A stretch of 4,336 nt of DNA from a virus (Duplodnaviria > Heunggongvirae > Uroviricota > Caudoviricetes), in IMG/VR virus record IMGVR_UViG_2690315922_000003, positions 1 to 4,336 of that record; one strand, 5' to 3'. Made by a program: the position numbers and the translations under genes. Within the stretch, counting starts at the first letter, position 1, and every line of letters begins with the position of its first letter. The notes beneath the pieces were generated by a model. That model worked only from the letters and a program-made list of their open reading frames with translations. It had not been told where the DNA came from and made no database searches. This document shows, one piece after another, positions 3,469-4,049 of this stretch.

Positions 3469-3987
3469 ATGGGCATAAGAGAACTAAACCTCACCAAAGA
3501 ACAGCACGAGTGGCTGAATGGCTGGCTTGAACTGTGGGGCGCATGGGTTTATTCAGGTCGTCTGGAAAAGCGCATGAGCAGCGTAATAGCGAAGTTCATG
3601 GAGAGCGTAGAGCCGGGAAGAGTTATGACAAGGCCAATGTGCAATGATGATGATGGAATGTTGATTTCTCAGGTCGTCGATTCCGTCATGTACATTGACA
3701 AGAAAGCCTTTGGCATCCTCCTCAGCTACTACGCTCATGGTTCATCTAAGCGAGCAATTGCATCCTACTATCACGCGACTGCAAAGCCACGCAAGATGCG
3801 TGGACGCGGTGGCGAGGGATGGAGAAAACCTTCACTGGCAACCTGTAGAAGCGAAATTGACGACATCCTGAAAGCGTCGTTATTTGTTTTGTACCAACCA
3901 ATGCAAAATGCTTTCAAAATGCGTAAACGTGTTGAGAAAGTTAAGCATGTTGCTGTTAAAAGCCTTGACATGCAATTAGCCATTTAG
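3469..3987 (+). CDS. Q: Late-gene antiterminator Q, 933W/Stx-phage-type Q family, 172 aa
   Basis: Last gene of the nin operon. GGGAGAAGG Shine-Dalgarno upstream of ATG 3469. Motifs LELWGAWV and RPMCNDDDGMLIS...ILLSYYAHG resemble the LERWGAW and RPxCxDDDxMII signature I recall for the Q antiterminator of Stx phage 933W. Followed by a promoter-like element and a terminator. Confidence 0.75.
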   Translation: MGIRELNLTKEQHEWLNGWLELWGAWVYSGRLEKRMSSVIAKFMESVEPGRVMTRPMCNDDDGMLISQVVDSVMYIDKKAFGILLSYYAHGSSKRAIASYYHATAKPRKMRGRGGEGWRKPSLATCRSEIDDILKASLFVLYQPMQNAFKMRKRVEKVKHVAVKSLDMQLAI

Positions 3988-3994
3988 CCATACT
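3965..3994 (+). promoter_or_regulatory. Candidate late promoter (pR'-like): -35 TTGACA 3965-3970, -10-like CATACT 3989-3994 (18-bp spacer)
   Basis: Perfect sigma70 -35 hexamer at the 3' end of Q with a 4/6 match to the -10 consensus at suitable spacing; position is analogous to lambda pR' immediately downstream of Q. The -10 element is weak, so confidence is low. Confidence 0.25.
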
Positions 3995-4004
3995 TAGAGG
4001 GTAA

Positions 4005-4049
4005 GCTGCCGTTAGTGACTCTTAAGTTGCAACGGTGGCTTTTTTATTT
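4005..4049 (+). terminator. Rho-independent terminator (tR'-like) between Q and the tRNA genes
   Basis: GCTGCCGTT (4005-4013) pairs with AACGGTGGC (4031-4039) as a 9-bp stem with two G-U pairs, followed by the T-rich tract CTTTTTTATTT (4039-4049). The loop is long (17 nt), so the real structure may be a shorter inner stem. Confidence 0.45.

Follow-up and report, generated by a model that had tools for sequence, protein, structure and literature searches.

Positions 3469–4049 of the window, by which we mean the whole 4,336-nt stretch of Caudoviricetes DNA analysed here (positions 1–4,336 of IMG/VR record IMGVR_UViG_2690315922_000003), very probably make up a cassette for late-gene antitermination that follows the plan of phage 21 and belongs to a P22/Sf6-like lambdoid prophage; we put the probability of this reading at about 0.9. 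The original prediction had seen here a Q gene with a late promoter, a short leader and an intrinsic terminator, and this is borne out, the same layout being annotated in the phage 21 and Sf6 records. The module is thus already known, being already annotated in these close relatives, and what the present locus adds is modest: a five-class table relating Q-binding repeats to contact residues, with a possible reading code, and three rare changes clustered in the -10 element and in the surface with which Q reads DNA. The anatomy of the cassette, its homology, its RNA fold and its comparative conservation were all observed directly on this sequence.

In a lambdoid prophage the window corresponds to the early-right operon at its right end, and its features are collected in Table 1. 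A 40.8-kb contig (GCA_027566095.1) is 100% identical to the whole window and carries a complete-looking P22/Sf6-like prophage, in which the genes run in the order cIII, kil, N, cI, cro, cII, O, DnaB, the nin genes and Q, and then holin (approximately 112 nt beyond the end of the window), endolysin, Rz, Sf6-type terminase, P22 portal, coat and tail. No stx gene was found in this prophage.

Table 1. Positions of annotated and predicted features in the window, counted from its first nucleotide
Feature	Position	Strand	Basis
NinB	765-1211		
Dam	1208-1735		
YbcO	2743-3033		
RusA	3030-3425		
Q antiterminator gene, 172 aa, Q21 family (Sf6/L subtype)	3469..3987	+	ATG-started 172-codon ORF; PF06530; PDB 6jnx/6p18
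Diverged 'specificity block': DNA-reading half of Q, Q-binding repeats, -10, up to start	3735..4001	+	Alignment and block identities against phage 21
Putative antisense paQ-like promoter inside Q: CII box TTGC-N6-TTGC (3794-3781), -10 TAGGAT (3767-3762)	3762..3794	-	Layout as annotated phage 21 paQ and CII site; homology only
pR' -35, TTGACA	3965..3970	+	Aligned to annotated phage 21 pR' minus_35_signal
QBEu, predicted upstream Q-binding subsite, AATTAGCC (-27 to -20)	3974..3981	+	Column-for-column alignment with phage 21 QBEu, ATTGAGCA
QBEd, predicted downstream Q-binding subsite, ATTTAGCC (-19 to -12)	3982..3989	+	Alignment with phage 21 QBEd, AATGAGCA
pR' -10, CATACT, after 18-nt spacer	3989..3994	+	Alignment; CATAAT in nearly all relatives, AACACT in phage 21
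Predicted transcription start, G4001 (possibly G4000), 7 nt after -10	4001	+	Aligned to annotated phage 21 late-promoter start
Sigma-dependent pause element (SDPE), TAAGCT, -10-like, +2 to +7	4002..4007	+	Identical to annotated phage 21 SDPE
tR' intrinsic terminator: hairpin 4003-4041 (G-C-closed core 4005-4039), U-tract 4040-4049	4003..4049	+	RNA fold; match to annotated phage 21 terminator
tRNA-Asn (GTT), first gene of late transcript, begins at base after U-tract	4050..4124	+	ARAGORN; Rfam RF00005, 55.3 bits; annotated in phage 21 and Sf6
tRNA-Thr (TGT), second gene of late transcript	4130..4205	+	ARAGORN; Rfam, 61.5 bits

The Q/pR'/tR' cassette of phage 21 was reportedly described by Guo, Kainz and Roberts in 1991, and structures were published in 2019 by Yin et al. 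and by Shi et al. The phage 21 record (OL657228) annotates the -35, QBEu and QBEd, the -10, the start site, the SDPE, the terminator, tRNA-Asn and tRNA-Thr, with literature references, and it is from this annotation that the phage 21 start site and terminator positions used here were taken, the terminator being annotated as starting two bases after the start site. Alignment with the phage 21 pR' region had been put forward as a check on the original prediction, and the window aligns to all of the annotated elements, which occur in the same order and spacing: the -35, two direct repeats of 8 bp, the -10, the start, the SDPE, a hairpin beginning at +3, and the two tRNAs. Identity to phage 21 is distributed in blocks, with 99% over 3413–3734, 66.7% over 3735–4001 and about 99% over 4002–4205 (also approximately 99% when taken to 4267), and the diverged central block looks like a swapped specificity cassette.

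Other relatives share this subtype. Sf6 (gene 59, P R', qut and t R') has a 172-aa Q, TTAGCC-type repeats, the same leader and the tRNAs, and is 99% identical to the window over 3940–4215; its record (AF547987) bears the labels 'nearly identical to phage 21 late promoter', 'qut site' and 't R''. Sf6 has a CATAAT -10 and C111 and N128 in Q, whereas the window has CATACT, R111 and S128. Phage L (gp23) likewise combines a 172-aa Q with TTAGCC-type repeats and the same leader, although its upstream repeat is AATTATCC, compared to AATTAGCC here, and its second tRNA is tRNA-Leu. Zaworski et al. (2020, PMC8022706) described the phage L Q as diverging from residue 94 onwards, with a specificity that is probably different, and proposed these repeats as the phage L QBE; hence, altered repeats and contact residues were rejected as a new finding, as they are already contained in that genome paper.

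The Q protein scores 90.7 bits against the Pfam profile PF06530 (Phage_antitermQ; cut-off 26), and its residues 1–162 match the solved Q21 chains PDB 6jnx and 6p18 with E values of 3.6e-92 and 1.2e-91 respectively, a homology that extends over the whole length of Q21. Residues 1 to approximately 89 are almost identical to Q21 (approximately 99% at the DNA level), and it is residues from about 90 to 172, forming the DNA-reading helix-turn[loop]-helix, that have diverged. Among the residues with which Q21 reads bases (H95, A124, R127 and R128, with R113 in the minor groove; Shi et al.), A124, R127 and R113 are retained here, while H95 is replaced by R95 and R128 by S128. By its sequence the protein is a member of the Q21 family, of the Sf6/L subtype: it is 172 aa long and ends inside its own promoter, the repeats take the form AATTA[G/T]CC/ATTTAGCC, and residue 95 is arginine. 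Residue 128, which is asparagine in 145/146 loci of this class, is serine here. Q21 proper combines H95, A124, R127, R128 and R113 with TGAGCA repeats, whereas the present locus has R95, S128 and TTAGCC, and because repeats and contact residues differ together from those of phage 21, we expect the protein to recognise the promoter of its own cassette and not the phage 21 promoter. Family membership is shared with Q21 and a difference in DNA specificity is predicted. The protein also carries a C-terminal extension of 10 residues (172 aa compared to 162 in Q21), and it is the last six residues of Q21 that touch RNA polymerase (bioRxiv 10.1101/651190), an observation that sits awkwardly with a simple transfer of the phage 21 model.

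The -35 hexamer was expected to be perfect at 3965–3970, and it is, aligning to the annotated -35 of phage 21. The promoter as a whole had been placed downstream of Q; it does lie at the end of the gene, but the -35 and the Q-binding repeats overlap the Q open reading frame, which ends at 3987, and QBEd ends on the first base of the -10, at 3989. This overlap of Q with its own promoter is a further difference from phage 21. The start predicted by alignment, G4001, falls within the range 3990–4005 that had been anticipated. TTGACA-18 nt-CATACT was the top promoter-like site of the window in a promoter scan (10/12 matches), and the composite TTGACA-N16-19-NATANT occurs once, against an expectation of 0.03, and in 6/200 shuffled sequences. 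Across the window as a whole, a generic promoter scan gave 4 sites with 4.9 expected, which is not above chance, so that the promoter call rests on homology and not on the consensus match; we did not treat generic promoter and terminator scans as usable evidence in either direction. In phage 21 the spacer is 17 nt and the -10 is AACACT, compared to 18 nt and CATACT here. The -10 of the window is one step weaker than the CATAAT of nearly all relatives, which is a point on the other side of the ledger from the main reading, as are the two rare Q substitutions described below, C111R in the DNA-reading loop and N128S in the recognition helix.

Both Q-binding and pause elements had been thought impossible to assign by eye, but alignment to the phage 21 and Sf6 records places each of them. 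The two subsites contain a tandem TTAGCCAT, at 3976–3983 and 3984–3991, and the stop codon of Q itself (TAG, 3985–3987) lies within the downstream repeat. The two C:G pairs without which Q21 does not act, at -21 and -13 (PMC6606751), are both kept here, as C3980 and C3988. The repeats differ from those of phage 21 at the same two positions in each copy, TGAGCA having become TTAGCC. The assignment of the SDPE receives independent support from its fixed distance to the repeats, since a TAnnnT motif lies exactly 14 nt after the C of QBEd in 234/234 loci of the family survey described below, that is, in all those where both repeats were found by pattern.

When the window was compared to all 40 of its unique IMG/VR relatives, three positions within 3469–4049 were found to differ from every one of them. 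T3799C changes cysteine 111 of Q to arginine in the minor-groove loop, A3851G changes asparagine 128 to serine in the recognition helix, and A3993C converts the -10 from CATAAT to CATACT; no position in 4050–4336 differs from all of the IMG/VR relatives. The 111-nt segment 3950–4060 has no exact match among 5,426 complete E. coli genomes, where the best match (99.1%) differs only at 3993, and a 33-mer spanning the -10 is absent from GTDB representative genomes. A single IMG/VR locus matched a 20-mer over the variant -10, and was rejected as an unrelated chance match.

These changes might be taken to mean that the cassette is attenuated or non-functional, with A3993C lowering initiation at pR', C111R and N128S weakening binding to the repeats, and late expression reduced as a result, either in a decaying prophage or through retuning to a lower burst. 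All three changes fall either in the -10 or in the part of Q that reads DNA, the adjoining 4050–4336 has none of the kind, and the variant is scarce in genome collections; these points lend the view some weight, but we consider it unlikely. The working -10 of phage 21, AACACT, has the same C; an exact-protein look-up places the identical Q on 22 contigs; and at least three assemblies have inherited CATACT, among them GCA_027566095.1, whose contig identical to the whole window has it inside the complete-looking prophage. One locus combines the same Q with CATAAT, which indicates that the changes are not obligatorily linked, and three changes are too few for statistics. We therefore rejected the notion that the substitutions are private to the window; the recurrence of Q on 22 contigs and of CATACT in three assemblies marks them as rare lineage markers and not errors.

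Downstream of the start, RNA 4001–4049 folds as a 17-pair hairpin with one bulge and a 4-nt loop, followed by UUUUUUAUUU running to 4049. The hairpin has a folding energy of -20.2 kcal/mol (z = -4.63), and 0/200 shuffled sequences fold as well. The terminator proposed at 4005–4049 is accordingly real, although its hairpin starts at 4003 and not 4005. A simple terminator scan of the window did not report tR', and Rfam contains no family matching the leader, the two tRNAs being its only matches. Over 4002–4049, 48/49 alignment columns are identical to phage 21, which has one extra T in its T-tract. Counted from the predicted G4001, the leader would be approximately 46–49 nt long, in line with an earlier estimate of about 45 nt, and such brevity is not anomalous, because the phage 21 design is the same. 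Indeed, both a short leader and a -10 that appears weak are normal for the Q21 family.

As tRNA-Asn begins immediately after the U-tract, the hairpin could instead be viewed as serving chiefly the tRNA-Asn precursor, as its 5' leader or as a signal for its processing, or as attenuating transcription constitutively, without regulation by Q; the RNA 4001–4210 does fold with the hairpin and the tRNA cloverleaves side by side. Such a role is very improbable given how the parts are combined elsewhere. In the family survey the same Q and repeats are joined to three leaders: the phage 21 hairpin followed by tRNAs, that hairpin with none after it, and a longer leader with TATGCT and another terminator. 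In many relatives this Q is kept along with its repeats, SDPE and hairpin although no tRNA follows, and in others Q and its repeats are combined with another leader and terminator, which shows that the hairpin goes with the Q system and not with the tRNA. In addition, the near-identical phage 21 terminator, with its one extra T, is a target of Q21-dependent readthrough in vitro (PMC6606751).

The start site, pause, termination, Q loading and nozzle mechanism are carried over from experiments on phage 21, and we infer that the same steps would operate in this copy, with an altered specificity of its Q. Sigma-70 RNA polymerase would initiate constitutively at pR', at about G4001, whereupon sigma region 2 would re-bind TAAGCT at +2 to +7 and hold the polymerase near +18; the pause of phage 21 occurs at +18 (bioRxiv 10.1101/2022.01.24.477500), and that of this copy is expected at a similar place (approximately 4018). 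Where Q is lacking, the polymerase would proceed through the hairpin (+3 to +41) and U-tract and release an RNA of some 46–49 nt. Where Q is present, two protomers would occupy the two direct 8-bp repeats between the -35 and -10, and the upstream protomer would insert its ring, or 'nozzle', into the RNA-exit channel of the paused polymerase, so that the nascent RNA is threaded through it. Q would then ride with the polymerase and sterically block the terminator hairpin, allowing tR' and later terminators to be read through and transcription to continue across the genes for tRNA-Asn and tRNA-Thr and on into those for lysis and morphogenesis. The hairpin shares its 5' arm with the SDPE in part, and its 3' arm starts at about +25, which implies that Q would load before the hairpin can close; a leader as compact as this should be workable because only the 5' arm exists at the time of Q loading.

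Phage lambda achieves the same end with a leader of about 194 nt. In its Q/pR'/6S RNA/tR' system, whose logic is that of the window, the QBE lies between -35 and -10, the polymerase makes a sigma-dependent pause close to the promoter, the leader is terminated, and Q forms a nozzle on the RNA-exit channel (PMC9388147; PMC6606751). However, the lambda Q sequence is unrelated, the profile matches obtained here being to PF06530 and PF06576 only, and lambda needs an extra -35-like element that phage 21-type promoters do without (PMC6606751).

The gene had originally been labelled a Stx-phage-type Q, which was imprecise. The protein is not of the Q933/82 type common in Stx phages: VT2-Sakai and other Stx1a/Stx2a-converting phage records, sampled across the ranking, have Q proteins that are 28.6% identical to it over residues 20–117 only; the two types share a weak N-terminal similarity at the level of PF06530, as well as control of a late operon. 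The Q of VT2-Sakai-like Stx1a/Stx2a phages we take to be of the Q933W/82 type, and Stx1a/Stx2a-converting phages carry different tRNAs. Q21 proper does occur in Stx2c phages and some Stx2a phages (98% identity to Q21), but as the present Q is only 85% identical to those proteins, and is followed by tRNA-Asn, tRNA-Thr, holin, endolysin, Rz, Sf6-type terminase, P22 portal and coat, with no stx within 10 kb, it is scarcely credible that this is the toxin-controlling Q/pR' module of a Shiga-toxin phage.

We surveyed 244 Q21-family loci from IMG/VR and phage records, whose sequences are related to one another. They fall into five classes, between which the repeats vary together with the contact residues at positions 95, 124 and 128. 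Phage 21 exemplifies the class with H/A/R and the repeat core TGAGCA; Klebsiella ST15-VIM1phi2.1, that with I/S/R and TGA[A/G]CA; and Edwardsiella GF-2, that with R/[V,I]/R and TGAGCC. The window belongs with Sf6 and L in the class defined by R/[A,G]/[N,S] and TTA[G/T]CC, and the fifth class, with R/E/K and TTACC[T/C], is represented by locus L096 of the survey. Across classes, the two repeats always change together and the distance from repeat to SDPE is constant. This pattern hints that the Q21 family may comprise five or more Q/promoter pairs, each orthogonal to the others, under a simple three-position reading code, a proposal that we advance tentatively and hold to be somewhat less than an even chance. 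According to such a code, residue 128 may read base 2 of the repeat (R with G; N, S or K with T), residue 124 may read base 4 (E with C; A, S, V, I or G with G) and residue 95 may read base 6 (R with C; H or I with A). R111 and S128 together with CATACT may then constitute a further retuned sub-variant. Each covariation of residue and base may stem from a single evolutionary event. Neither the per-position code nor the five classes were found in the literature searched.

For annotation, the analysis settles where the late operon of this prophage would begin, with its control elements each positioned to the base, and corrects a possible misreading of the locus as a Shiga-toxin phage module. It adds nothing beyond annotation to the understanding of how Q works. 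The table of repeat classes against contact residues is a possible guide for specificity swaps or for the design of orthogonal antiterminator switches. If true, the code would define a set of portable antiterminator switches that do not cross-react, and it would explain why recombination joints fall exactly at Q residue ~90 and at +1.

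Q genes of the Sf6/L subtype, to which the Q of this prophage belongs, encode a C-terminal extension of 10 residues, VKSLDMQLAI, and the coding sequence for this extension (3955-3987) spans the -35 element and both Q-binding repeats of the late promoter, the stop codon being the TAG of the downstream repeat. The final six residues of the phage 21 protein, Q21, touch RNA polymerase (bioRxiv 10.1101/651190); given the extension, the corresponding residues would be internal in Sf6/L-subtype Q. Three substitutions are rare: C111R (position 3799) and N128S (3851) in Q, and a change of the -10 from CATAAT to CATACT (3993). 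These are the sole positions in 3469-4049 at which the window is unlike all 40 unique IMG/VR relatives, and all lie in the promoter or in the DNA-reading part of Q. They also occur in a few NCBI assemblies and are thus inherited, not errors.

Q also contains a predicted paQ-like, CII-dependent antisense promoter with a putative CII site (see table). Phage 21 has an annotated paQ and CII site of the same layout, despite the location of the window's site within the block that has diverged from phage 21. The window holds four copies of TTAGCCAT, the octamer of the Q-binding repeats, where 0.21 would be expected, and at least four copies were seen in 0 of 200 shuffles. The two extra copies are probably coincidental coding sequence.

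Positions of the extra Q-repeat octamers and of the antisense promoter elements
Feature	Position	Strand	Remark
Single extra TTAGCCAT copy	224-231	+	Inside ORF 209-478
Single extra TTAGCCAT copy	2743-2750	-	Overlaps YbcO start codon, opposite strand
Predicted paQ-like CII-dependent antisense promoter	3762-3794	-	Inside Q; layout as in annotated phage 21 paQ
Putative CII site, TTGC-N6-TTGC	3794-3781	-	Phage 21 CII-site layout
-10 TAGGAT of paQ-like promoter	3767-3762	-	

Upstream, in the nin region, a terminator-like hairpin at 504-537 (AGGCCTGC...GCAGGCCT, with six G-C pairs, followed by TTTTATTTGG) sits within a hydrophobic mini-ORF of 27 codons (475-558), which was read from the sequence by eye, the ORF listing comprising frames of at least 40 aa. 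This hairpin could be a tR2-tR4-type terminator of the nin region. A NinF-family ORF of 69 aa (2272-2481), with cysteines in a CxxC...CxxC arrangement, lies inside the listed ORF 2248-2481, as marked by Pfam on an identical contig (L248). Several small unannotated ORFs of the region overlap head-to-tail through ATGA, which is typical nin-region packing.

Two strong hairpins, at 4213-4262 and 4287-4333, separate tRNA-Thr from the holin gene, and the RNA fold of 4206-4336 has an energy of -53.8 kcal/mol (z -4.81). Phage 21 keeps the first, its copy being followed by a T-run. Sf6 also has the second (GGCAAGAGGTTG...CAACCTCCTGCC, then GTTTTGCC), which resembles a weak further terminator or a processing site of the late leader. 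In survey loci L010, L013, L035 and approximately 20 more from IMG/VR, as well as L026, L028 and others, different leaders are found directly 3' of the -10, with Q, the repeats and the -10 unchanged. In one such leader the sigma-dependent pause element is TATGCT and a different terminator follows about 70 nt downstream; in another, the phage 21 hairpin is present without tRNA genes. These swaps behind the same Q, repeats and -10 indicate that recombination joints are concentrated at two places, the start site and the point just past the U-tract.
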